In this document: positions 22,620 to 64,000 of the stretch, piece by piece
Layout: every line of letters begins with the position of its first letter
Numbering within the stretch: position 1 is the stretch's first letter
Origin: a virus
Direction: 5' to 3' (one strand)
IMG/VR virus record: IMGVR_UViG_3300030406_003049
Location: 1 to 64,000 of that record
Length of the DNA stretch: 64,000 bases
Translations under genes and position numbers: made by a program
The notes under the pieces: model-generated
The model's database searches: none
Told to the model about the DNA's origin: nothing
What the model saw: only the letters and a program-made list of their open reading frames with translations

Positions 22620-24136
22620 CTCTTTTCCTCCTTCAATTTCAAATAATAGGAACGCCCTACTTTATCTATTTCAAACAAACCCTCGTCTTCGTATTTCTTA
22701 AATAACCTTTCCGCAGTTCTTACATTCATTGATTTTGATAATGTTTCCTTCGCTACTGCCTTACTAAAAAATCCATGCTCGTTTACCTTTGCTTGTCTTA
22801 GTGTCTCCAAAAATAGTTGTTCATTTGGTGATTGAGTTCTTCCACCGACCCTGCGTTGAACCTTTAGGCTTCGCTCTAACCATAATACCAATGTGTTATA
22901 ACATTGTCGCACTATGTTTCCTGCTTGCACAACATTTCTACCACTTACATGAAATCGCTTTGATTTGTCTTTAATGTCCTTTGCTTCTGCAATAGAACAA
23001 AGAACTGACATCTTAATTAGAATTTTCAAAAGCCTAGTTGTAAAGTTAGATGCAATTTTTCTAACTACTGGGTCGCTTGAACTGATGAAGTTCTGCATAG
23101 TTTCATATTCTACTAGTAAATTCTCGGTAAAGGTTTCTCCGAATGTCATTGTTCTCAATGGGTCTTTCCCAACTTCCTCAAACCTTTCTCTTACTAATTG
23201 ATAAATTTCAAAGAACTCTTGTGCAAACTCATCAATAGGTTCATTGATTTCTTCTATTTTTCCCGCTTTGCTAATTTGCATTCTTCTCATAGCGTCTAAT
23301 ACTCTTTCGGGAACTTCCCAAATAAAAAGAATCATTCTTTGAAGAACACCTTTGTTAGCAATAACCTTCGCTAATTTCTCCGGTGGGTAAGTCATGGCTA
23401 AAATAGAACGCTCGCAATAACATTCCATCATTTCTCCACGCTTTAGTTTCTTACTAATAATCCAAGATTCACCCGCTAATGTATTCATTAGAGTATTTAG
23501 ATATACAATGGCTTGTTCTTTATTTTGACTTTGTTTGAAGATACCGCTATATTCAAACTCGTCCCAATGGGCTAATCCGCTACCTTCTAATAGTCCTGCT
23601 TCCCTAACCCAATCAAGAACTTTCTTTGTGTTTCCATCTTCATCTTCTTTTTCTACCGTCATTTCTTCATAACCGCCAATTAAAGCGGCATCTGTATATT
23701 CAGTAGTAGACATTAAATCAAATTTCTTTGCGGAACAGAACCCATCTTCATCGGGAACATAACCATTTAACGGGTGCTTGCCTTCTTCATTTATTAGAGA
23801 AAACAGTTTCTTAGAAACTGGCCCAACAAAATTCCATAGGGTAGATTTACCCGAACCGGAAGTCTGTATTTGACAAAAATGCACCCTGCTATCTTCTATA
23901 CTTCTACCATTAGGTATTAGCACAAAGTCTTTACAAATCTGTCCTAGTAATACAAAACAACTTAATGCCGCAGGTATGTCATTCTTGAATGCTACCTTTA
24001 CTGCATCTTGTTGAAATCTTCTAATAAAACTAGGTAGATTAGTGTTGAAAACTTTTGTGTTTTCATCAACTCCATACAAGTATTTTTCTTCTTCTTCGCT
24101 CAATTCAAATTCTTCGTAATTTATATCTTCATTCAT
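22616..24136 (-). CDS. MCM-like AAA+ helicase/ATPase with C-terminal winged helix
   Basis: Walker A 'TSGSGKS', Walker B 'HWDEF', Arg finger 'LQRM', sensor 'TTRLL'. Confidence 0.7.
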   Translation of the reverse strand: MNEDINYEEFELSEEEEKYLYGVDENTKVFNTNLPSFIRRFQQDAVKVAFKNDIPAALSCFVLLGQICKDFVLIPNGRSIEDSRVHFCQIQTSGSGKSTLWNFVGPVSKKLFSLINEEGKHPLNGYVPDEDGFCSAKKFDLMSTTEYTDAALIGGYEEMTVEKEDEDGNTKKVLDWVREAGLLEGSGLAHWDEFEYSGIFKQSQNKEQAIVYLNTLMNTLAGESWIISKKLKRGEMMECYCERSILAMTYPPEKLAKVIANKGVLQRMILFIWEVPERVLDAMRRMQISKAGKIEEINEPIDEFAQEFFEIYQLVRERFEEVGKDPLRTMTFGETFTENLLVEYETMQNFISSSDPVVRKIASNFTTRLLKILIKMSVLCSIAEAKDIKDKSKRFHVSGRNVVQAGNIVRQCYNTLVLWLERSLKVQRRVGGRTQSPNEQLFLETLRQAKVNEHGFFSKAVAKETLSKSMNVRTAERLFKKYEDEGLFEIDKVGRSYYLKLKEEKR

Positions 24137-24843
24137 ATTTTCACCTTTTCTTCTGTGTTTAGGACATTCAAGATTCTTCGGGCTAAGGTTCTACCTATAC
24201 CGTCTATATCTTGAAGTTCTTTTTCTGTTTGTTCGCCTATTTCCATAATTGAACCAAAACGCTTAATCAGCGCATTAGCCTTGTCTAAGGACAAGCCTTT
24301 AATTGTTGTGAGTAAATCTACTCTCAAATCATCTGTTGATATTCTTTTGAATATCTCCGGCCTTATTACCTTCCTTTCTATTGGTTTCATTTTACATATA
24401 GAAGCAATAATCAAGGCCGCTTCTTGTTCATTAGATACCCAAAATGCCTTTGCATCTGTATCTAATGTTATTCTACCAATACCCCCAAGAAACTTATTCT
24501 TAAGTTTGATAGACCAATTGGCGTGTTGTCTATCAGAAATCTTTTGTTTTGTTTTGATGTATTTTTTATATTCAGTTATGCCTTCATCAATACTACCATA
24601 AATAATTACTATGTTAGTTTCGTAATGTCTATCCATGTTATCTAATTGAGTCCACATTCTTTTACTCATTACTGAATTAATGAAATCATGTGCTGACTTA
24701 GCCTCAAAACATACATCATCATAAACATAATCTCCTATCTCTAGCCACTTCTTTTCATAGGGTATCTTCATCTTTAGTGCTTCGCTCTCTACTAGTTCTA
24801 CAAGTTTAGAACCTTTCTTTTCTCTACTATCTATCACTAACAT
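24133..24843 (-). CDS. XPF/ERCC4 (Hef-like) structure-specific nuclease with HhH motifs
   Basis: 'VIDSRE', 'GDY', 'EAKS..DF..S', two HhH ('IKGLS', 'IDGIG'). Confidence 0.9.
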   Translation of the reverse strand: MLVIDSREKKGSKLVELVESEALKMKIPYEKKWLEIGDYVYDDVCFEAKSAHDFINSVMSKRMWTQLDNMDRHYETNIVIIYGSIDEGITEYKKYIKTKQKISDRQHANWSIKLKNKFLGGIGRITLDTDAKAFWVSNEQEAALIIASICKMKPIERKVIRPEIFKRISTDDLRVDLLTTIKGLSLDKANALIKRFGSIMEIGEQTEKELQDIDGIGRTLARRILNVLNTEEKVKI

Positions 24844-25895
24844 TATGCTTCCTCCGCATGTTCGGGGTATCTCCAACATTTACCAACACAATATCCATTA
24901 GGTATCAATACAGTCTTACAATGAGGGCTACTATAATTACCAAAGACAGTAAACTTAGCATGTTTTCTTGTTTCCCTCTCGTCCCAATCTAGCCATATTT
25001 CTTCATTACTTTCTACCAAGTGTCGTATTTCATCTACTATGGTGTCTAGTATTTTGTTCTTATCTTCTGTGCTTTCTACTCTATTACAACCGGATAGTAA
25101 ATCTCTATACCATGATACTAGATATGCTCTAGCCATGTGGGAAGGATTCTCGGTCATAATAGCATTGTATAAACAAGGCAAGATAGGCAAAGACCCTGTT
25201 GTTTTAGGGACTGCTATTTCACCACTTACCTCATCTAAAGGAGGGGCTTCGGGAAATATCGCCTTAACAGAACCACTTATTCTAAACGGTATTTTTCTAG
25301 GCTTCTTTGCTAACTCAAGTATTTCATGAACCTCTTTTTCTAAATCAGTTCTAAGTAATGGTATGCAAAAATAGGGATTACCGTTCTCATCTTTAGAACT
25401 CATGTTTACTGTATTAGGTATTCTTCTAAGTCTAGTTGCTTGGCCAACCCTATCATCAAGGGTATTATTATCACCAACTTTAGATATTAAATATTCTTTA
25501 ATTCCTCTAAAGAAGACTTGTATGTTTCTAATAGTGTCTGCGATTTCACCAAAGATAAACAAGTGAAAACCTCTACCCGAAAAGAAAAGAGTATGTTGAT
25601 AATCATTCTCAATAACATGAGTCATAACAACTTTAACATCTCGCCATGCTTTCTCAATACTTTCACCATGAGCATCAAAATCAAGAAAGATTCTATCAAG
25701 TATAACCGATGAATCTATCTTGGCTTTTTCTGCAAATTCGGCAAAATCATAAACGCTAGTGTAAACATTAGTTCTATTATTTTGAGCCTTTACATAACTC
25801 AAGTATTCTTCTTTACTTCTTACTATTCTTCTTGGTAGTGGAGGAGCGTTCTTCATTTGACTCCCCGACCAAACTTCTCTCGGAAACTTCATCAT
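24843..25895 (-). CDS. priS: Archaeo-eukaryotic primase, PriS-PriL fusion
   Basis: 'FLDFD', 'FSGRGFH', 'RLRRIPNT'; C-terminal Cys set (PCLY, PHC, YCVGKC) like the PriL Fe-S domain. Confidence 0.85.
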   Translation of the reverse strand: MMKFPREVWSGSQMKNAPPLPRRIVRSKEEYLSYVKAQNNRTNVYTSVYDFAEFAEKAKIDSSVILDRIFLDFDAHGESIEKAWRDVKVVMTHVIENDYQHTLFFSGRGFHLFIFGEIADTIRNIQVFFRGIKEYLISKVGDNNTLDDRVGQATRLRRIPNTVNMSSKDENGNPYFCIPLLRTDLEKEVHEILELAKKPRKIPFRISGSVKAIFPEAPPLDEVSGEIAVPKTTGSLPILPCLYNAIMTENPSHMARAYLVSWYRDLLSGCNRVESTEDKNKILDTIVDEIRHLVESNEEIWLDWDERETRKHAKFTVFGNYSSPHCKTVLIPNGYCVGKCWRYPEHAEEA

Positions 25896-26675: not shown

Positions 26676-27596
26676 TCACACCCATGAATCTTCTTCTGCC
26701 GCATCGCACATACTAAAATAACTACAATGAGAACATGTCTTAAGGAAAAACTTTGTAGGGAATACTTCATTTTCATAAGCATGTATCAACTTAGCAATAT
26801 TATTCAATACTGCTTCTCTAGCCCTTAGTTTACCATTCTTGTATCTATTAGATTCAGCGAATACATAATTAGCCGCAGGATAATACCAACCCCAATGAGT
26901 TACAGGAACATTAGGTTCTAATCCATTTTTAATTAGAACTTCCTCCGGTGCATTCTCAATAAGCAATTGATAGAAAGCCATTTCTTTTCTCATTGAAGTT
27001 TTCTTTCCATCATTCCACCCACCAGTCTTATATTCAAATGGGACATAGCCACCATTCTCCATAAAGATTCTATCTATAATACCTTGAATATGTATTTTAT
27101 AATCTCTACGCAAGGGAAACTTAGGGTTTGTATCAGCCGGTATTGTTATTTCAGCATCAAATAATCCTTCATTACATACAGGCAAATACTCATGCACTTT
27201 ATCTTCTGCTTTAGCGTCCATGAATCGTTGAGCCTCAAAAGCGGCAACTGTCATAGATATGTCAAAATACTCATCAATTGGTGTAAGACTAGCGCAATAA
27301 TCATGCAATTCATCAGCAGTCATATTCTCCGCCTTCTTAACATCAAAATCATCAAAAAAGTTTTCTCTATGAAGATGTAATATAGTTCCTTTACGCATGG
27401 CTTCTGTTTGGTCTTGTGGTAATTTTTGAATATAACTAAAGTTATATTTCTTAGCGCACCAATCAAATGCACCTAAAGAAGATTTACTAATCTTCAATAT
27501 AGGTTCTGTTGGGTCGTCATAGTTCTCCGGCTTCCAGTCATAAGTATATTCGCTCATTGAATTAATTATTGTTTCATATTTTTCATCGTTATTCAT
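26676..27596 (-). CDS. Cas4/AddB-like PD-(D/E)XK nuclease with Fe-S cysteines
   Basis: N-terminal Cys (FDWC), 'GIIDRI', 'FEYKTG', C-terminal CxxC-x5-C. Confidence 0.85.
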   Translation of the reverse strand: MNNDEKYETIINSMSEYTYDWKPENYDDPTEPILKISKSSLGAFDWCAKKYNFSYIQKLPQDQTEAMRKGTILHLHRENFFDDFDVKKAENMTADELHDYCASLTPIDEYFDISMTVAAFEAQRFMDAKAEDKVHEYLPVCNEGLFDAEITIPADTNPKFPLRRDYKIHIQGIIDRIFMENGGYVPFEYKTGGWNDGKKTSMRKEMAFYQLLIENAPEEVLIKNGLEPNVPVTHWGWYYPAANYVFAESNRYKNGKLRAREAVLNNIAKLIHAYENEVFPTKFFLKTCSHCSYFSMCDAAEEDSWV

Positions 27597-47173: not shown

Positions 47174-48025
47174 TTAATTTCTCCTTATTTCATTTATCTG
47201 TTTACCTCTCAATTGAGAGCATTGTTCATAACCAATCAAAGCCAACAGTTTCTTTGTGGTTAGTTTTATGTTAGAAGTGGCTACATTCGCCCTTTCTGCA
47301 ATCTCTTTCTGTTTTATTGGGTGCAAAAACATATTTGCGGCAATCCAACAAATGCTAGAATAGTAGACTGTTCCTTTAACACAATCAGTTTCTTGGGTTA
47401 AAGTTTCAAACACTTCTAAAACATCTTGACACTTTGAAGCATAATTCAAATCATCTGTAATCTTAGAAGTTATTTGTTTCAACATATAATTAGGGTCTGT
47501 CTTAACTTTGGTGTTGGTATTGTAGTATTTGTTTATTCTTTTAATTGCCCTGTTCAATGTCCTAGTATTACAAGAAAATTCCTGCCTTAATTGCTTTAAA
47601 GGAATAGGTGTCCTATTTTCTTTTAGAACATAATAAACTACCGCAGTTGCTTTTTCTTCAATTCCTAAAGTAGTTAGAACATTTTTTCTATACAAATCAG
47701 TATAGCATTCTTCAACTCTACTAGATAATGGGTGTCTAGGCATAAGTGTTGATAACAACATATTACACATTCTAAGCCCATTATCTAAATGAGTAGTGTT
47801 GCTTGCTATCCACTTGACACTTTTCTTATTTGAATCAACATGACTTCCTAATTTTTTCTTACCGCCATAATCCGGTGTGTGAACAAACTCTCCGCTTTTA
47901 TCAACGGCTCTAACTGTTTGTTCAAACAATTCTGTTATTGCTATCAGCCCACAATCTACACAAGATAGTTCGCCTAAATTATCATTCATTTCAAAATTAT
48001 TTCCTTCGCATTCAAGACACTTCAT
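47174..48025 (-). CDS. tfb: Transcription initiation factor B (TFB/TFIIB-like)
   Basis: N-terminal Zn ribbon 'CLEC...GELSCVDCGLI', two cyclin-like repeats, C-terminal HTH 'QKEIAERANV'. Confidence 0.85.
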   Translation of the reverse strand: MKCLECEGNNFEMNDNLGELSCVDCGLIAITELFEQTVRAVDKSGEFVHTPDYGGKKKLGSHVDSNKKSVKWIASNTTHLDNGLRMCNMLLSTLMPRHPLSSRVEECYTDLYRKNVLTTLGIEEKATAVVYYVLKENRTPIPLKQLRQEFSCNTRTLNRAIKRINKYYNTNTKVKTDPNYMLKQITSKITDDLNYASKCQDVLEVFETLTQETDCVKGTVYYSSICWIAANMFLHPIKQKEIAERANVATSNIKLTTKKLLALIGYEQCSQLRGKQINEIRRN

Positions 48026-56286: not shown

Positions 56287-56757
56287 TTACTCGTCTTCAA
56301 CGGGCGTTAGCCCTGCTACCGTTCCGTCCCACTTCCCATCTCGGAACTCTTTTTTGAGCCTCGTCATTAGTCGCTTTTTGTTCGCATTGGCGAACTCTTT
56401 GTTTGTCTTATAGAAGCCACCGCCTGATTTCTTATGTCTTGGCGTGATGAATCTAATCACAGGGTCATGCTCCATGTAGTCAAGCGAAGCCGAAAACATC
56501 TTCTTGCCTAATTGCTCTACCACTACCCTTACTTTAGCGGGAAGGTCGCTCTTGTTTCCTTTGTGAAAGGGTGTCCCTTCCTTGTCTTTCAGCAAAGCCT
56601 TCATTGACTTTACAACACCATCTCTTGCCTTTTCATCATTTTGCCCTACTTCAAGGTTCAACTTCAAGACTTGAATTAGTCCACTTGAAATGTCAGCCCC
56701 CGAATCTAGGTATTCTTCCACATCTAACTTAATGTGAGTCCATGTATTGTCGTCCAT
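56287..56757 (-). CDS. Cassette-family protein, member 1 (divergent)
   Basis: Shares 'LP..V', 'HxKSGGG.(Y/F)' and 'W(D/N)G' with 58649-59107 and 60121-60615. Confidence 0.75.
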   Translation of the reverse strand: MDDNTWTHIKLDVEEYLDSGADISSGLIQVLKLNLEVGQNDEKARDGVVKSMKALLKDKEGTPFHKGNKSDLPAKVRVVVEQLGKKMFSASLDYMEHDPVIRFITPRHKKSGGGFYKTNKEFANANKKRLMTRLKKEFRDGKWDGTVAGLTPVEDE

Positions 56758-56951: not shown

Positions 56952-57357
56952 CGACAAATTTTCCGACACGATAACGACACCCCTAAACGGGCAACTGCGC
57001 CTTAAACGACATTTGCGACATTTGCGACACCCCCCTAGAATATATTGGGGAGAATAACTATGAAGATTCTTAATAATAAATTAGAGGGGGAGAGGGGTTA
57101 AGATAGAAGGGGTGTCGTTATTGTCGTATTGTCGGTAATAATATATTATTATTAATAATATTAATAATAAATTAATTACTATCAAGAATCTTACTAGTAA
57201 ATATGCGACACTTTTACCGACACCCCCTGCCTCTATCCTGTCGCCTATCCGATTCTTCTATATTATATACTATACAATATGAATATTTCAATAAATATAG
57301 GTAATACATTATACATTCAATTGAAAGTGATACTATCAAAGTGTCGTATATCTGTCG
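56952..57357. repeat. CGACA/TGTCG iteron cluster around an AT-rich core (candidate origin)
   Basis: 8 CGACA and 6 TGTCG copies in about 400 nt of non-coding DNA; near-pure A/T tract at 57136-57181. Confidence 0.6.
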
Positions 57358-57451
57358 CTAACATGTCATACACAATTGAGAGCCTATGGATATAAATAGA
57401 CTTGGTTTACTTTGGAAACCCACAGACAAAATAAAATTTTTGAAAATGAGA

Positions 57452-57637: not shown

Positions 57638-58387
57638 TCATTGGTTTCTAGCCTCCCTTGTCATTTTTACAATGTCGGGTGTGCATTTGCTTTCATTGAG
57701 AGTAATTGCTTTGAAATTACAATCAATTTCAACATTATCAACATCATATCCGAATTGTTTTGTCTTCAAGACCCTTTCAACTACGCTTTGGACTTTACCA
57801 AGTATTTCAAGTGGGAAAGCCACCATGTATTCTTCAATTGTTTCCTTTCTTTGGACTGTTTCACAACTCCAAAATGTTTTGAAAATCAACTCCATACCAC
57901 CATAGTTATTTTCAAGTTCTATTCTAATTTTAACCCCATTATCCAAAACAATTCTATTATCTCTTTCAATTTCCTTAAAGTTAAATAGACTATTTTCTGT
58001 CGGTGGATAAGTATAGTATTGTGTTTCATCAAAAGCAGGAACTAAATAATCACCTTTTGGTTGAACCCAATCTTTCTTAGTGGTTTCACTTACTATTCTA
58101 TCAGTGCTTACATTTTCAAATTTATTTGACAAACCTTCAACTATTTCATTTGCAGTTGAAATGTATTGAACAGTAAAGATTAGTTCATCATCAATGTATA
58201 TACCATGTCTTGTTGATTTCTTAGTTATGGTATTATAACCGTATTCGGGAACTTCGCCCCAATAGGTTGTCATCATTGTCAAACCTTTCTTTTGTAGTTG
58301 ATGAGCCAACTTTGCTTCTTCTTTTTGATTGAGTCTTTCATCATGCTCATATCGTATTTTCATAGTTCTATTATATTCTATCGCCAT
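57638..58387 (-). CDS. Hypothetical protein (cassette 5)
   Basis: 249-aa ORF with GGAGG RBS and its own promoter. Confidence 0.75.
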   Translation of the reverse strand: MAIEYNRTMKIRYEHDERLNQKEEAKLAHQLQKKGLTMMTTYWGEVPEYGYNTITKKSTRHGIYIDDELIFTVQYISTANEIVEGLSNKFENVSTDRIVSETTKKDWVQPKGDYLVPAFDETQYYTYPPTENSLFNFKEIERDNRIVLDNGVKIRIELENNYGGMELIFKTFWSCETVQRKETIEEYMVAFPLEILGKVQSVVERVLKTKQFGYDVDNVEIDCNFKAITLNESKCTPDIVKMTREARNQ

Positions 58388-58422
58388 AGTTAATAACCTC
58401 CAATGATAATATGTTAGGTTAG

Positions 58423-58510
58423 TATATATCGTGGGTTCTCAAAGTAAACCATATGGTTGTTTCACTATTACTTTTGTTGTCGTAGACTAGTAGAAACAAC
58501 CTTAAAAAAA
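58423..58510 (-). repeat. Cassette junction A: T-tract, bulged hairpin, ACCATATGGT, TATA
   Basis: TATA 58423, palindrome 58448-58457, stem 58455-58463/58493-58501. Confidence 0.85.
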
Positions 58511-58648
58511 GGGCGAAGACACCCGCTAAGATTGTGTTTTTTCCTATCTCATAAGAAGTGCTTTTCCCTGCACTATATGAGTTTCCGTCTTAGCGGGTGC
58601 TTGCGTGAGTTTGGCGCAACAATGGGTTGTTTTGTGGCTCTAACGGGT

Positions 58649-59107
58649 TTATTCGGTAGCCTCCGTTATGGCTACGGGAAGTGAACCGTCCCAAGTTTTA
58701 TTGTTGTAGTGTTGTCGTAGTTTTCCGGCAGTCATGTTAGCCATCATTGTCGCATATTCGTCAGCGTCAGCGAATAGACCGCCACCGGACTTACCATGCT
58801 TGAAGATAACCGAACTAACCGAGCCGTGATTGTAAAAGTTAGTTGATGCTTCTACAATTTCTGCTTTGATAGCGTTGATTGATGCTTGCACATTCTCCGG
58901 TAGAGTAGAGCGTGAAGGTAGTAAGTCGTCAAGGCTCATAGCCTTAACCAATGCTCTAATACTAGCCCAAAATTGGTCTGCTGATTTTTCATCAGTAGCC
59001 TCAAGTCCGGCCTTGATTGTGTTCTCAAGTGCCGCATTCTTGATTTTCTGTGCTTTCATGTTTGCTTGTAATCCTGTCATTCTGCTTAATGTTCTTTCTA
59101 AATCCAT
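58649..59107 (-). CDS. Cassette-family protein, member 2
   Basis: 'QFWASIRAL', 'STLPENVQA', 'YNNKTWDG'. Confidence 0.8.
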   Translation of the reverse strand: MDLERTLSRMTGLQANMKAQKIKNAALENTIKAGLEATDEKSADQFWASIRALVKAMSLDDLLPSRSTLPENVQASINAIKAEIVEASTNFYNHGSVSSVIFKHGKSGGGLFADADEYATMMANMTAGKLRQHYNNKTWDGSLPVAITEATE

Positions 59108-59173
59108 ATTTTTTCATCTCCTGTGTTTTACCACTACTCCAACCCATTGAAGCAATAATAAGTGGGTTCATAG

Positions 59174-59268
59174 TATATATTGGGGTTCAACAAAAGCAAC
59201 ACCATATGGTTGCATCAATAGTTCTTTTTGAATTAAGCATAGCGTTATTAGATGCAACCTTAAAAAAA
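59174..59268 (-). repeat. Cassette junction B
   Basis: TATA 59174, palindrome 59201-59210, stem 59208-59216/59251-59259. Confidence 0.85.
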
Positions 59269-59271
59269 GGG

Positions 59272-59322
59272 AAAAACTCCCCAAATCCTAAGAAATGGGG
59301 AGTTTTTTTGACCGAGTGTGAT
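59272..59322 (-). terminator. Hairpin terminator preceded by ATCACACTCGGT
   Basis: AAAAACTCCC/GGGAGTTTTT stem; same layout at 60779-60828. Confidence 0.6.
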
Positions 59323-59324
59323 GG

Positions 59325-59696
59325 TTAGAAGTAGTCCATGTATGAGGCAATATACTTTGGCTTTCCGTCCCACGCTTCACCGTTTACATACCATTGAAAA
59401 TCCTTTTGATGGATATTAACTCCATTAAATCCGTTCAATCTTTCTTTTGTGGTGTTAGTTGGCCAACCTGCCGAAGTAATCCACAATTTCTTGAAATAAT
59501 ATCTATCACCAAAAGAACTAGGAACTGTATGTTTTGGATATACACATTCGTTGTATGCTATAACATTCCCATGTAATAACAATTCAATTTTTTCTGGTTT
59601 TTCAGTTGGCCCACATACTCTAACTTGAGTATTACCTTTTTTGAATTTCTTTCCCTTTTCAAATGCTCTTAATGCTTCATAAGTTATCTTTCGCAT
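59325..59696 (-). CDS. Conserved phage hypothetical protein (leaderless, cassette 3)
   Basis: 'LHGNVIA...AGWPTNTTKERLNG...QKDFQW'; ATG 21 nt from the TATA box. Confidence 0.75.
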   Translation of the reverse strand: MRKITYEALRAFEKGKKFKKGNTQVRVCGPTEKPEKIELLLHGNVIAYNECVYPKHTVPSSFGDRYYFKKLWITSAGWPTNTTKERLNGFNGVNIHQKDFQWYVNGEAWDGKPKYIASYMDYF

Positions 59697-59716
59697 ATTA
59701 CTATAATGTTAATTAG

Positions 59717-59806
59717 TATATAGTCGGGTTTCTCAAAAAGATACACCATATGGTTGCTTAACTAATCTTTGGTGGCTTTAGCCTAGTAAAAGCAACCTTA
59801 AAAAAA
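59717..59806 (-). repeat. Cassette junction C
   Basis: TATA 59717, palindrome 59745-59754, stem 59752-59760/59789-59797. Confidence 0.85.
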
Positions 59807-60120
59807 TGAGAAACTCCGGCTACTCGTTCAAATCCAGTGAATGCGTGATGCTTACAGAAAATAGACGAGGGAATACGAGTATAACTAGTATTCTCGCAGT
59901 ATCAATCTATATGTATCTCCGACCGACTTACATTTACAACTTGACTTTCGCCTTCGTTTCTCAATGGTGTTATGGCCACTAATAACCATAGGAATAGGAC
60001 TAGGGAGCATAACGATTTTAACTCTTAGTTTTCTATTTTTATTTCAATTTCAAAAATGAGTATCGCTATGCTCCCGTTGAATGGGACTGGCGCAACATGG
60101 GGATATTGCATTAGTTAGGC

Positions 60121-60615
60121 TTATTCGCTATCCTCCTTAACAGGTAGCGTAAGACCAGTGATGTTATCATCGGTCAATTCACCGTTCCAAAGTTTATTCT
60201 TGTATGAGTCAGTTAGAAGTCTTCTAACTCTCTTACCAAAGTAGTCTGCTAGTTCTTGAATATCAGCGAACTTTTGACCCGATGTATTACGCATAGGCAT
60301 AATAGTATCAATCATCAATTCCGGCTCACCAATACCCACAAAAACATTTACTACCCGATTCACTACAGAATCCACAACGGCTTGAACTTGTGTAGGTAAT
60401 GATGGTTGAGTGCCTTTGCGGATAGGGGAGTTTGGGAGTGTTTGACACAAAGACCTAATACTCGCCCAAAATTGCTCATATTGTTTTTCAGTTTGACCTT
60501 CAACTTGTGCTGATGTTATCATGCCTCTTAGAACTATGTCCAAAGAACCAGCATCGTTCACATCTAGCCAAGTTATAATGCTATTTGTTTTTTCTACTAA
60601 TTTACTATATTCCAT
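60121..60615 (-). CDS. Cassette-family protein, member 3
   Basis: 'QFWASIRSL', 'PSLPTQVQA', 'YKNKLWNG'; GGAGATG RBS. Confidence 0.8.
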   Translation of the reverse strand: MEYSKLVEKTNSIITWLDVNDAGSLDIVLRGMITSAQVEGQTEKQYEQFWASIRSLCQTLPNSPIRKGTQPSLPTQVQAVVDSVVNRVVNVFVGIGEPELMIDTIMPMRNTSGQKFADIQELADYFGKRVRRLLTDSYKNKLWNGELTDDNITGLTLPVKEDSE

Positions 60616-60685
60616 ATTTTTCATCTCCTTGATTGTATGCTAACCATACAATATCCCCATGAAGCAATAATAAGTGGGTCTATTC

Positions 60686-60774
60686 TATATGAAACGGGTA
60701 TTTCAAAGTAAACCATATGGTTGTGTCAGTCATTCTTTTTGATTGCTTCGCTACTAGACACAACCCTAAAAAAA
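60686..60774 (-). repeat. Cassette junction D
   Basis: TATA 60686, palindrome 60712-60721, stem 60719-60727/60757-60765. Confidence 0.85.
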
Positions 60775-60778
60775 GGGA

Positions 60779-60828
60779 AAAAACCGACTACCCCTAAAGA
60801 TAGCCGGTTTTTTTTAACCGAGTGTGAT
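60779..60828 (-). terminator. Hairpin terminator preceded by ATCACACTCGGT
   Basis: AAAAACCGACTA/TAGCCGGTTTTT stem; homologous to 59272-59322. Confidence 0.6.
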
Positions 60829-60831
60829 TAT

Positions 60832-61020
60832 TTATCCTAAACATTCATAATCATTCATAATACACGCCCTAAGTTTTTCCCCCTCAAGGTGTGTTAGTCG
60901 CTTTTGGTGTAAATATTGCTCAAACTTTTCAAGAGCATATCTTTCTAATTGTTCACGGCTCATTGATTTGATTAATCTTATTGTATATGGGCTTACATAG
61001 TGTAGTTTCAACATATTCAT
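60832..61020 (-). CDS. Hypothetical protein (cassette 1, gene 2)
   Basis: GAGGAGG RBS; ATGA coupling. Confidence 0.6.
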   Translation of the reverse strand: MNMLKLHYVSPYTIRLIKSMSREQLERYALEKFEQYLHQKRLTHLEGEKLRACIMNDYECLG

Positions 61021-61286
61021 TCCTCCTCATCTGCTTCATTCCAAGCCTCATAAAATCGTCCTAAAAACGCCTCAAAAATATGACCCTGCATTATTTCTCC
61101 AACTTGAAGACCTGTATGTTGGGGTTCAATTTGAATGTTTAACGGTGTTCCTATTACATCGTGATATGTTGTATATATTTCACCGAAATATACAGGGAGT
61201 AAACTCTCTACATATTCATGTATTCCGTCTTCATCATCATATTGCTTTTTGTATTCTTTTACTTCTTCTGCCCAATCTATTGACAT
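61017..61286 (-). CDS. Acidic hypothetical protein (leaderless; cassette 1, gene 1)
   Basis: ATG 61286 is 21 nt from TATA 61307; MSIDWAEEV...EADEEE. Confidence 0.7.
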   Translation of the reverse strand: MSIDWAEEVKEYKKQYDDEDGIHEYVESLLPVYFGEIYTTYHDVIGTPLNIQIEPQHTGLQVGEIMQGHIFEAFLGRFYEAWNEADEEE

Positions 61287-61306
61287 ATTATTATAATATG
61301 AATTGG

Positions 61307-61375
61307 TATATAATCGGGTTATACAAAGCAACACCATATGGTAATACAATCTAGTCTGTTATACAACCATATGGC
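61307..61375 (-). promoter_or_regulatory. Array head: TATA plus two tandem ACCATATGG palindromes
   Basis: Palindromes at 61333-61342 and 61366-61375; no bulged hairpin; at the strand-divergence point. Confidence 0.65.
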
Positions 61376-61521
61376 TTTGTTCCAAAATTTTTTTCTTTGT
61401 TAATTTAGCCTAATTAACCATTAATCGTTAAATTAGGCTCATTAACTACTGATATTAACAAGTTAGGACATAAAACTACAACATTTATTACCTCTATAAT
61501 ATTACGATATGTCAAGGAGGT

Positions 61522-61758
61522 TTGTTCATTAGTGCTGAATTACGAAATAGATTAGATTCCGTAGTTCAAACAATAAGGCAAGTATTACAATATACAAAAG
61601 AGCAAAAAGCGTTTACTGATAAACAAAATAAGGAATTACGCTATGCTCAAGTAGAGTTAAGAAAACTGATTAAGTATATACAGGATATTAAATCAACCAC
61701 TGATAAAGATGAGAGATTTAAGGACTATGGTAATACTAAGCAAACTAAACTATTGTAA
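61522..61758 (+). CDS. Hypothetical protein
   Basis: AAGGAGG RBS; TTG start. Confidence 0.55.
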   Translation: MFISAELRNRLDSVVQTIRQVLQYTKEQKAFTDKQNKELRYAQVELRKLIKYIQDIKSTTDKDERFKDYGNTKQTKLL

Positions 61759-61870
61759 GTTAAAGTTTTATTGTGGAAATACATAATATAAGAAAAAAAA
61801 ATTTTCGCTAGTGCTACAAAAATTCCGCCACATTTTTTGAAAAAGTCGTTTAAAATAAAAGGTGAATAAT

Positions 61871-63100
61871 ATGACATGGGAAAATATACTCAAAGACAAA
61901 CCACTACTAGATATGAGAAGAATAAATAATCTATATTCCCCATATATTGCATATCATGTAGCAGGGTTGATAGAATCCGAACTTTATGGAAAACTTAGAA
62001 CTATTCCGTATAATGAAAAAATAAGCGACGCTTTAGAATATTGCATTAGTTTTGATTATAACGAATTTGCAGAAGAGATATTTAGTGGAAGCAAGGGCGA
62101 CTATGGTATAGCAGATAAAGAAGCCGAAGGGTTGTATAATGATGGTAAAAAATTTGGTGGTAAATTTACTCTTAAAGTAAGATGGGAAAAACCCATGTAT
62201 CAGTTTGAAGGAGTAGAAGAAGTTGGTAAAAAATTAGACGGTGTTGAATTAGATATAGAATATGAAGGTTCATGGGCTAAAAATTATCAAGGTGTAAAAC
62301 TAGGAAAGGGGCAGAATGTTAAAAATTTCAAAATCAATGCTTCTTCAATTAAAAAACAACTAGACGAGGCACTAGAAGGTGCAACCATTAAACACGACGG
62401 AGAAGAATATGGAGTAATGTTAAGATTTTTAGACAAGCCTGACTTTAAAATTAAGGCTCTTCAAGACTTAATTGGGCGAGCATATATGGACTATGGCGGC
62501 ACTATTGGTGACGACCCTGCAAGAAGTTATCCAAATTATAATAAAAGACCAACTAGTAAAACTAAGAAAGAGTCTTGGCGTAGCGTTTTGCGAACTAGTG
62601 CTAACTTTGGCGGTAAGGGTAGAAGGAGCGACAAGAAAGTAGATGCTTATATGAAGGCTCTTGATATTGACAATGACCCCGAATCCATAGCAGATATGCA
62701 ATCCGGTAAAAAACTCATACAAAATGATGTAGAAATTGCCGAAGGAATAAGTGTAGATGATTTCTACAAAATAATGGATAAAGCGAATGTAAGTCAAGAA
62801 AAGTTAGAAGAAGAAGAAGAAGAGGCAGATGCGGAAGGTAGAGATGAACTGATTTTTTACTTGCAGGGTGAAATGTCATCACTTGGTAAATTGGATTTAA
62901 ATATAACTGTTCCTAATCTTGAGGAGCGAAACACAAAGCGTAGCAGATATGGTTATATTGATGGAACTTATACCCCACTTACTTTTAACGAATATATGGA
63001 ATTAGAAAACATAAAGGCTAAACAACATATATTTGAGATTGAAAAAGTAAAAGAAGGTTTTATGAAAATTTTTGAAGAAGTAAAAACATTAGGTGAATAA
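61871..63100 (+). CDS. MTW-motif protein 1
   Basis: Starts MTWENILK; internal SWRSVLR. Confidence 0.8.
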   Translation: MTWENILKDKPLLDMRRINNLYSPYIAYHVAGLIESELYGKLRTIPYNEKISDALEYCISFDYNEFAEEIFSGSKGDYGIADKEAEGLYNDGKKFGGKFTLKVRWEKPMYQFEGVEEVGKKLDGVELDIEYEGSWAKNYQGVKLGKGQNVKNFKINASSIKKQLDEALEGATIKHDGEEYGVMLRFLDKPDFKIKALQDLIGRAYMDYGGTIGDDPARSYPNYNKRPTSKTKKESWRSVLRTSANFGGKGRRSDKKVDAYMKALDIDNDPESIADMQSGKKLIQNDVEIAEGISVDDFYKIMDKANVSQEKLEEEEEEADAEGRDELIFYLQGEMSSLGKLDLNITVPNLEERNTKRSRYGYIDGTYTPLTFNEYMELENIKAKQHIFEIEKVKEGFMKIFEEVKTLGE

Positions 63101-63101
63101 T

Positions 63102-63377
63102 ATGACATGGAAAGATATGTTGAAGAAAGATGATGGAAGAAAGGAATTGAGACGAGAGATACTTCATCATAGAAGGAAGAAAGAAAGCAAGAAGCGTCAA
63201 ATGGATAGGAAGAACCAAGATAGTAAAAAACCAAAAAGAAAAGTGAATTATGCTAATCCAACAAGACTTGAGGATTTTCCTGAACATATAAAGGGAATTA
63301 GCCTACCTAGTAGTTTTGACCCCGATAAAGATAGTGTAGAAGATTATCTTAAAGACCCTAAAAGATTTGAAAGGTGA
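63102..63377 (+). CDS. MTW-motif protein 2 (basic)
   Basis: Starts MTWKDMLK. Confidence 0.75.
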   Translation: MTWKDMLKKDDGRKELRREILHHRRKKESKKRQMDRKNQDSKKPKRKVNYANPTRLEDFPEHIKGISLPSSFDPDKDSVEDYLKDPKRFER

Positions 63378-63382
63378 ATAAT

Positions 63383-63634
63383 ATGACATGGAAAGATGAG
63401 ATAAAGAAAAGAGCATATCGTTATGATGGTGTTTTTTTAGTTAAGTTAAGAGAGGCAATAGATGATTTGGCTTCCGATTTAGAAGATATTGTTAGTGAAA
63501 AAGATATTAAGGAAATGGCTGAAAAATACAAGCAAAATTTTAGCCGTTATGAAATAGTCATTATGGCTTTAGAAGATGAAGCAAGAAAAATACAAGACCA
63601 ATTAACCGAAGATGCTGAAACGGCAAAATACTAA
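63383..63634 (+). CDS. MTW-motif protein 3 (acidic)
   Basis: Starts MTWKDEIK. Confidence 0.75.
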   Translation: MTWKDEIKKRAYRYDGVFLVKLREAIDDLASDLEDIVSEKDIKEMAEKYKQNFSRYEIVIMALEDEARKIQDQLTEDAETAKY

Positions 63635-63644
63635 GGTGAATAAT

Positions 63645-64000
63645 ATGACATGGAAAAACGCTATTCGCAAGGCAAGAGTATATGATTTTACATATACTAC
63701 TGAACTTGAGAGGCGTAAGCATGGTAGATTGCATTCTATTACTGGTGGAAAGGGTGTCTATGAAACTGATTATGAAAAAGTCATAATTGAATGGAGTTTG
63801 ACTTTTGAGAATAGCGAAGATTCAGTATATATCCAAGAGCCGAATATTGACAAAATTACTGTAGTGGGTGTTGATGCTTCTTTTGATGAGGGCTTTGATG
63901 CGGCTAATATGGAATGGGATATAGAAAATAAAGATGTTGTAGTAGATGATGTTCAAGCAGATATATATTTAAGCACTAAGGAATTACCTATGACTTTGAT
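63645..64000 (+). CDS. MTW-motif protein 4 (partial, runs off the window)
   Basis: Starts MTWKNAIR; open to the window end. Confidence 0.75.
   Translation, partial: MTWKNAIRKARVYDFTYTTELERRKHGRLHSITGGKGVYETDYEKVIIEWSLTFENSEDSVYIQEPNIDKITVVGVDASFDEGFDAANMEWDIENKDVVVDDVQADIYLSTKELPMTL

Follow-up and report, generated by a model that had tools for sequence, protein, structure and literature searches.

Covarying hairpins between the early genes of a marine magrovirus: probable arms of a symmetric junction module rather than integron sites

A stretch of viral DNA of 64,000 nt (the window), with which the complete virus record IMGVR_UViG_3300030406_003049 of 94,947 bp begins, carries between positions 58,423 and 61,375 a row of small genes separated by hairpins whose stems differ from joint to joint and remain complementary. 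What are these hairpins, and by which route do the genes between them move? An earlier note on this DNA had proposed an integron-like system that captures and shuffles early genes of an archaeal virus. We arrive at another answer: with a probability of roughly 0.6 the hairpins are the terminator-facing arms of a conserved symmetric module joining the early genes, an archaeal-virus counterpart of the promoter-early stem-loop (PeSL) cassettes of T4-like phages and not an integron. A conserved symmetric promoter/terminator joint, pairing within it at the DNA level and recombination between such joints are the observations behind this answer.

The four stem-loops that had been reported, here J1 to J4, are borne out by the sequence and by folding. 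Each is composed of a 9-bp lower stem, one unpaired base and an upper stem of 3–4 bp, the lower stem of J3 being 8 bp plus a T:T mismatch. Folding energies lie between −14.4 and −16.3 kcal/mol with modest z-scores (−1.3 to −2.8), and the four copies fold on either strand. Each hairpin abuts a palindrome, ACCATATGGT, and is placed between a terminator with a tract of seven thymines (T7) and the promoter of the next gene. ACCATATGGT occurs five times in the window (0.04 expected) and CCATATGG six times, always within 58.4–61.4 kb; the combination of GGTTG...CAACC joined to CCATATGG is found in exactly four copies in the whole genome. The elements are the following:

58455–58501: hairpin J1, stems GGTTGTTTC/GAAACAACC and ACTA/TAGT, bulge at 58492, covariance-model score 80.3 bits; terminator-facing arm of the joint upstream of the gene for a protein of 249 amino acids (aa)
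59208–59259: hairpin J2, stems GGTTGCATC/GATGCAACC and AATA/TATT, bulge at 59250, inner stem capped by a T5 loop
59752–59797: hairpin J3, stems GGTTGCTT/AAGCAACC, position 9 a T:T mismatch that is C-G in strain relatives
60719–60765: hairpin J4, stems GGTTGTGTC/GACACAACC and AGT/ACT, lower stem invariant in 12 strain-level orthologues
58448–58457: palindrome ACCATATGGT of J1, its outer bases being the foot of the hairpins on both sides
59201–59210: palindrome of joint J2
59745–59754: palindrome of joint J3
60712–60721: palindrome of joint J4
61333–61374: array head, with palindromes at 61333–61342 and (CCATATGG) at 61367–61374 and a degenerate inverted repeat between them

Minus-strand early genes and plus-strand genes meet at the array head, a divergent promoter region. 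It had been described as two palindromes without a hairpin: the palindromes are present, and the inverted repeat between them (7/10) corrects the second half of the description. In relatives such as L160, L147 and L171 (our numbers for related loci) the head-type repeat has a 6-bp stem, six perfect pairs followed by a mismatch, with a palindrome closing each end.

All genes between 56.2 and 61.3 kb are encoded on the minus strand, and the suggested layout of upstream T7, hairpin, palindrome and promoter is correct when read on this coding strand. The order at a junction is stop codon, GC stem, T7, AA or AG, GGTTG-stem, loop, stem-CAACC and ATATGGT; then follows the promoter half, consisting of a short GGT..CTTTG..ACC repeat, a C, the box TATATAC and either a leader or the ATG. 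The corresponding sites are:

58504–58510, minus strand: terminator T7 (A7 on the plus strand) of the 152-aa gene, with its GC stem upstream at 58511–58524
59262–59268, 59800–59806 and 60768–60774: equivalent T7 tracts
58422–58447, minus strand: gene-facing half of J1, with the repeat GGTT-(tactttgag)-AACC, a C and the TATATAC box (58428–58422)
59173–59200, 59716–59744, 60685–60711 and 61306–61332: equivalent gene-facing halves

Terminator-like sites are enriched (11 versus 3.2 in shuffles), and since a separate GC stem stands before each T7, the hairpin is not the terminator. Every cassette has its own T7 terminator and its own TATA box 26–27 nt before the ATG or leader, which supports the view of the early genes as autonomous cassettes. 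In the 123-aa gene (59722 to 59696) and the 89-aa gene (61312 to 61286) the ATG begins exactly 26 nt after the first T of TATATAC, and in relatives the TATA-to-ATG distance peaks at 26–27 nt (23 of 60 gene-facing half-modules). So constant a distance is in keeping with leaderless archaeal mRNAs. Sites of the sigma-70 type are no commoner than in shuffled sequence (22 versus 22.3); a sigma-70 reading of the promoter (TTTACT-16-TATACT) was dropped for this reason and because other clades do not conform to it. The 152-aa and 167-aa genes are covered by RNA contigs of two metatranscriptome studies: one contig end, at 59153, coincides with the predicted start (59179 minus 26), and three more (60658, 59137 and 60641) fall 7–24 nt inside, which gives a weak hint.

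A search with the helicase gene retrieved 79 related loci. Loci with at least 55% helicase identity carry 4–13 CCATATGG sites in the 2–7 kb upstream of the helicase; no such arrays were found in the more distant relatives (helicase identity below 55%). Across these loci the hairpin proves to be one half of a two-fold symmetric module, in which CCATATGG is flanked on both sides by a GGT-stem, a C-TTT-G apex and a stem-ACC. The centre reads (A)CCATATGG(T), the arms start with GGT and end with ACC, and the apex is C-T(3–5)-G. Outward from the palindrome either side follows the same plan, and ACC is succeeded by (C/T)TA and a TATA box or a run of A: on the gene side this is the TATA box, on the other side an A/T tract that is the T-tract terminator of the preceding gene. 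Minimal arms are perfect 7–8-bp stems with a TTT loop, for example GGTTGTC-ttt-GACAACC, and long arms retain CTTTG within the loop. CTTTG is present in about 80% of half-modules and tops the stem at every stem length from 3 to 13 bp. Stems reach at least 6 bp in 26% of the promoter-facing half-modules (227 in all) and in 18% of the terminator-facing ones (195 in all). In the genome studied here the promoter-facing arm is reduced to 3–4 bp and the terminator-facing arm is the long hairpin; among the nearest relatives L125 has stems of 9–13 bp without a bulge and L126 stems of only 5 bp. The unpaired base, taken at first for invariant, is constant in this genome and its strain-level relatives only, being absent from L125, L217 and L126. 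The loop motif CTTT(TT)G corresponds to the conserved apex, and the other loop motifs that had been listed are not conserved.

A first loose pattern scan of viral contigs yielded only single matches among the matches listed, some of which were later placed on contigs of relatives retrieved with the helicase; the comparisons here use those relatives. The module was also sought in 185,579 prokaryote genomes, with the result of single chance matches and one array (L252): a 14.7-kb contig (NZ_NZTP01000027.1) in a metagenome-assembled genome of Altibacter (Flavobacteriaceae), which has seven CCATATGG sites and encodes homologues of four cassette genes as well as a helicase with 62% identity. This contig is a magrovirus fragment, probably mis-binned; as its array belongs to a magrovirus relative, no host copy of the module was found in this search.

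The earlier note had pointed to covariation of the stems. Changes on both sides affect 3 of 13 pairs within the four copies, and 96% of cells are paired compared with 85% in shuffles, a level reached by only 1 of 500 shuffles. A covariance model of the four copies, the search suggested at that time, gives 118 matches with E ≤ 1 in 1.39 Mb, 114 of them new; all are located at early-region palindromes, and there was no match elsewhere in this 95-kb genome nor in distant relatives. In the alignment of these matches 95.6% of cells are paired versus 74.2% in shuffles, a percentage inflated by the fitting of the alignment to the model, and 153 cells with double changes compare with 37.9; none of 500 shuffles reaches the observed values, and sliding the partner by 1–3 columns leaves 29–51% paired. 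A partner-swap control is free of the model-fit bias: at least five pairs beyond GGT/ACC are formed in 8.1% of 565 half-modules but in 0.3% with swapped partners. Furthermore, orthologous hairpins with the same loop show compensated stems (GGTTGCTTTT, GGTTGTTTTT, GGTTGTTTAT and GGTTGTAAT, each with its exact complement), for example a C-G to T-A change. Strain-level contigs likewise exchange C-G for T-A at stem position 6 and A-T for C-G in the upper stem. In J4 the loop varies across 12 strains and the lower stem is invariant, all three single-nucleotide polymorphisms of J2 in run X10 are located in the loop, and each hairpin has its own stem sequence.

These data bear on one alternative, namely that the stems do nothing by themselves. 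In that case the module would be a bidirectional promoter or operator whose palindrome, CTTTG and ACC are read as duplex DNA, and gene conversion or template switching between inverted copies, in the course of frequent recombination, would maintain the complementarity. Both flanks of the palindrome are indeed homologous half-promoters, most half-modules have only a 3–5-bp GGT(T)/(A)ACC foot, and recombination is frequent at the joints, all of which this explanation accommodates. However, CTTTG stays on top of stems from 3 to 13 bp, unlike a duplex motif kept at a fixed distance, and the compensatory changes beneath unchanged loops, the constant lower stem of J4 under a varying loop and the individual stem sequence of every hairpin speak against it as well. 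We consider stems without function unlikely.

The second part of the question concerns the movement of the genes, which are encoded on the minus strand as follows:

57638–61286: span of the cassette genes
57638–58387: 249-aa gene
58649–59107: 152-aa gene, paralogue of the 156-aa gene at 56287–56757
59325–59696: 123-aa gene (Kyano_Gp96/phrog_554)
60121–60624: 167-aa gene, a further paralogue of the 156-aa gene at 56287–56757
60832–61020: 62-aa gene
61017–61286: 89-aa gene

Neither order nor content is fixed, as a shuffling system had led one to expect, and maps differ even at 86–88% helicase identity. The order from the head is 89, 62, 167, 123, 152 and 249 aa in this genome; in L126 the 123-aa gene stands ahead of the 167-aa gene, and in L125 the 89-aa gene is in last place. 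Clean cases come from pairs of more closely related genomes. L171 has one cassette more, of 397 bp, and on its flanks a 24-nt repeat with the palindrome at its centre. Between L149 and L151 one cassette is inverted with two palindromes as its bounds, and between L151 and L152 neighbouring cassettes are exchanged. The proposed location of breakpoints at the palindrome beside the hairpin also holds: of 184 distinct homology breakpoints found in early regions, 32% are no more than 20 nt away from the centre of a palindrome, where 5.4% were expected, and 13.6% no more than 5 nt away (1.1% expected).

A further comparison covers a strain set of 14 metagenome contigs with 167-aa proteins 73–98% identical. 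Four strains carry the 123-aa cassette before the 167-aa gene, which it follows here. One joint of L216 is a chimera: terminator, T7 and hairpin come from the left half of J3, and at the palindrome they pass into the right half of J2 with the promoter of the 152-aa gene. From this chimera the moved unit can be read as promoter, gene, terminator, T7 and hairpin between two palindromes. Depending on which of the 14 strains is compared, the left homology edge of the 167-aa cassette lies anywhere between 60845 and 60722, about 120 nt of joint. Crossovers are thus concentrated at the palindrome, yet not confined there. Many of the shuffling joints have stems of only 3–5 bp. Other strain differences are plain deletions, for example the remnant at 59807–59998, whose gene is kept with its module in L208. 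No circular or back-joined cassettes were seen among assembled contigs of four runs, the sole joint being one weak 408-nt skip (61380 to 61789) with a 22-nt side.

Two joints of L216, at 2936 and 4909 and hence 2 kb apart, share an identical hairpin-plus-palindrome unit of about 58 nt with different outer flanks, which suggests recent copying or conversion. The stretch 59807–59998 is apparently non-coding and corresponds to a gene with its own junction module in the strain contigs L208 and L209; it contains a degenerate palindrome, CCATAGG, at 59986–59992, and an RNA contig of depth 134 matches 59964–59995 and then diverges.

Could such exchange be the work of a dedicated system? In this case CCATATGG between its two hairpins would be cut or strand-exchanged, in either orientation, by an unrecognised structure-specific recombinase or nuclease of virus or host, candidates being the viral ERCC4/XPF or PD-(D/E)XK nuclease acting with the two ligases of the virus. 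A conserved stem foot and apex around a variable, covarying middle would suit such a substrate, as would the 12-fold excess of breakpoints within 5 nt of the palindrome centre, one inversion with its endpoints inside the palindrome, the identical units on either side of the 2-kb block in L216 and the structure-specific nucleases and ligases encoded by the virus. If true, early and possibly anti-defence genes could be excised, inverted and re-inserted any way by an independently evolved functional analogue of the integron. However, six-frame searches of the complete genome found neither a tyrosine recombinase (PF00589, with positive controls) nor a Y1 HUH enzyme (PF01797), so that the absence of a recombinase, noted before for the window, extends to the complete genome for these two types. 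There is no attC core and no family-wide extrahelical base; joints with stems of 3–5 bp take part in the shuffling; the shifting edge of the 167-aa cassette places crossovers throughout the joint; and hairpins are found equally often inside promoters, between palindrome and TATA box. We therefore give a dedicated structure-specific system a small chance. An integron/attC or IS200-type mechanism as originally envisaged is not supported: no recombinase of these two types was found, an R''/R' core is missing, the cassettes have their own promoters, crossovers are spread and the bulge is not family-wide. Shuffling by restriction and ligation at CATATG (NdeI-like) was likewise dropped, as the site is not depleted (26 versus 32 expected).

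Does the hairpin act as DNA or as RNA? The position upstream of the TATA box and the pattern of covariation argue for a DNA structure, as had been suspected: pair types in the alignment comprise 762 Watson-Crick, 11 GT, 5 AC and 31 other pairs, so that G-T is not favoured. Because the spacer between terminator and TATA box is untranscribed and the compensatory changes are of Watson-Crick type only, we infer that the element works, if at all, as folded or cruciform DNA, and the constant place of the apex above stems of every length speaks for recognition of a folded form. Alternatively, folding may take place in single strands that arise during replication or recombination. As for its role in the promoter module, the stem-loop could be recognised as a structure by some factor, could respond to supercoiling as a switch or could serve as an insulator. 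The weakest alternative, that the hairpins are transcribed as short plus-strand antisense RNAs started from an A-rich box or by a TATA box working divergently, or serve as a back-up signal in read-through transcripts, can point to a plus-strand order of palindrome, hairpin, CAACC and TTAAAAAAA that mirrors a real promoter half and to plus-strand T-runs 30–50 nt further on at three of four joints, but it is very improbable given that G-U pairs are not favoured, that Rfam gave nothing at or above the gathering score (best NsiR1, 25.8 bits versus 39), that the same hairpin type stands between palindrome and TATA box beyond the reach of the module promoters and that the coding-strand T-tract precedes the hairpin, the wrong order for a terminator.

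We return to the symmetric junction module as the preferred explanation. That units are inserted, deleted, re-ordered and inverted by way of the modules is shown by comparing genomes. A module of about 30–110 nt at every joint, with a palindromic core, implies that recombination rebuilds a working promoter: exchange between two modules would insert, delete, re-order or invert units of promoter, gene, terminator and hairpin and restore such a promoter each time. The palindromic core would let a cassette enter either way and keep its palindrome, hairpin and TATA box. Most likely the exchange is ordinary short-homology recombination, which may be carried out by general viral or host enzymes as proposed for PeSLs; the virus itself encodes two nucleases (ERCC4/XPF and PD-(D/E)XK), RecA-like AAA_24 ATPases and two ligases.

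Several points weigh against this explanation. Stems of at least 6 bp are found in only about a fifth to a quarter of half-modules, and a long stem is accordingly not required for promoter activity or shuffling; whatever function the hairpin itself may have is argued from sequence. The pairing percentage of the large alignment is raised by its model fit, as stated above. Loops in this genome measure 18–25 nt in the bulged fold (28–34 nt counting the lower stem only), and loops of this size disfavour cruciform extrusion from duplex DNA. Inversions need inverted homology, of which only the 8–12-bp palindrome and CTTTG are available; this is short for recombination of the RadA/RecA type and fits a site-directed break equally well. 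A Pfam search of the larger open reading frames (ORFs) found no recombinase, the small ones being only partly scanned, so that an unrecognised recombinase is possible. Finally, the RNA contigs cover no hairpin, which we do not use as evidence as assembled contigs cannot show the absence of a transcript.

The commonest family of cassette proteins (56287–56757, 58649–59107 and 60121–60624, plus 80 members in relatives) is present in 2–5 copies per genome, one of which adjoins the helicase in each genome. Its predicted fold is all-helical (predicted local distance difference test score, pLDDT, 92), with no PDB match by Foldseek, no Atlas hit and no Pfam or PHROG family, and this lack of a structural match leaves no pointer to a DNA-binding or recombinase role. 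The leaders of the 152-aa and 167-aa genes (59122–59178 and 60634–60690) share a stem-loop CCCAC-TTATTATTGCTTCA-(A)TGGG, and a similar motif, TTGCTTCA...GGGG, precedes genes of the same family (152/167-aa type) in relatives. Between two early genes, at 57054–57423, lies an AT-rich block with direct and inverted repeats of 20–30 nt (families D8, I7, I8 and I12), possibly an origin or what is left of a joint; the promoter-side motif, TGGTTTACTTTGGAAACCCAC, recurs there at 57403–57423 in the opposite orientation. On the other side of the head, a 78-aa protein is encoded next to it at 61522–61758, and four plus-strand genes (starts at 61862, 63093, 63374 and 63612; region 61860–63671) open with the same sequence of about 20 nt (repeat family D1) and encode the N-terminus MNNMTW(K/E), the proteins being otherwise unlike.

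By its gene content the virus is a marine magrovirus. It encodes a split PolB, an RFC-like clamp loader, a Cpn60/TCP-1 (thermosome/GroEL-family) chaperonin, two ATP-dependent ligases (one in the replication block, one in the structural block), an ERCC4-HhH (XPF) nuclease (24133–24879), a PD-(D/E)XK nuclease (26676–27596), two RecA-like AAA_24 ATPases and terminase, portal, protease and capsid genes. The identification is based on agreement with the gene set published for magroviruses (PMC5434244), in which the polymerase is likewise split and a ligase stands within the structural module. Together with the archaeal TATA spacing it supports the archaeal host domain proposed before. A megablast search against a phage collection gave no match. 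The minus-strand gene at 47174–48025 encodes a 283-aa protein with a TFIIB-type zinc ribbon and HTH_11 that resembles a transcription initiation factor (TFB-like). In the whole genome, made up of the window plus L205 and L206, GATATC, GAATTC and GTATAC are absent and CTATAG has 4 copies, compared with about 32 expected for each, with CATATG and CAATTG at the expected frequency; the missing palindromic hexamers look like restriction-site avoidance.

Magroviruses infect archaea of Marine Group II and are abundant but uncultured; for these viruses an early-promoter architecture is now defined, along with a mechanism-level picture of exchange among their most variable genes. We found no mention of promoters, regulatory DNA, a palindrome or a hairpin in the magrovirus papers searched, and a literature search for CCATATGG returned nothing relevant. 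The module also provides more than 100 examples of a compensated stem-loop in untranscribed DNA, which is rare beyond attC sites, replication origins and N4 promoters.

The promoters of the phage N4 virion RNA polymerase are hairpins whose 5–7-bp stems close 3-nt loops, with the centre about 12 nt ahead of the start, and they need this polymerase. As in N4, where the hairpin is recognised as a structure, a DNA hairpin lies upstream of early genes here; in contrast, it ends a few nt before the TATA box and about 35 nt or more before the start. N4-like promoters were dropped because the geometry is wrong and no viral RNA polymerase was found, a 2893-aa ORF having no Pfam or PHROG match. Ends of the IS200/IS605 type differ from the present case, in which the genome has no Y1 HUH transposase (PF01797).

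With attC sites the module has in common an array of single-gene cassettes and a recombination-prone site that has a conserved foot and a variable but paired mid-stem and acts as DNA. It differs by the absence of IntI and of RYYYAAC/GTTRRRY boxes, by a stem foot GGT...ACC joined to ATATGG and by the lack of family-wide extrahelical bases, the bulge being limited to this sub-clade. Moreover, the cassettes have their own promoters, whereas integron cassettes are mostly promoterless and read from the common Pc; a palindrome is flanked by two hairpins, exchange is independent of orientation and crossovers seem not to be limited to one point.

The closest archaeal precedent in the literature searched is the intergenic repeats of halovirus HF2 (Russ, Pfeiffer, Dyall-Smith 2021, PMC8707807). 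There, too, an archaeal tailed virus carries intergenic repeats with BRE (B recognition element)/TATA promoters ahead of early or left-arm genes, and one TATA box is reported to be active in both directions. Our locus agrees in its TATA spacing peak at 26–27 nt, and RNA contig ends near the starts are weak evidence in the same direction. In HF2, however, direct repeats of 58 or 29 bp carry fixed sequence motifs. A term search of that paper gave no palindrome, hairpin or stem-loop, and the passages it returned contained neither a covarying inverted repeat (the sole inverted repeat being a fixed 9-bp one in IR4.5) nor shuffling at the repeats.

The strongest likeness is to the PeSLs, mobile regulatory cassettes of T4-like phages (Arbiol et al. 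2010, PMC2839356; Comeau et al. 2014, PMC4122927), which their authors likened to integrons as well. In both systems short promoter, stem-loop and terminator motifs lie between small, non-essential early genes of a hyperplastic region, and insertions, deletions and replacements between relatives are bounded by these motifs, without a dedicated recombinase. Here a composite early promoter with a stem-loop is repeated between small variable genes, and the changes are bounded by the motifs, which shows that shuffling of the PeSL kind is not restricted to T4-like phages. The differences are clear: an archaeal host and a TATA box instead of the sigma-70 promoter, and a stem-loop that is not a terminator, stands after the T-tract and before the palindrome and is found inside promoters too. 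The stems covary as DNA, and a perfect palindrome between two hairpins makes the module two-fold symmetric, with inversions being seen; it is this palindromic connector that would explain how cassettes can be inverted and still be expressed.

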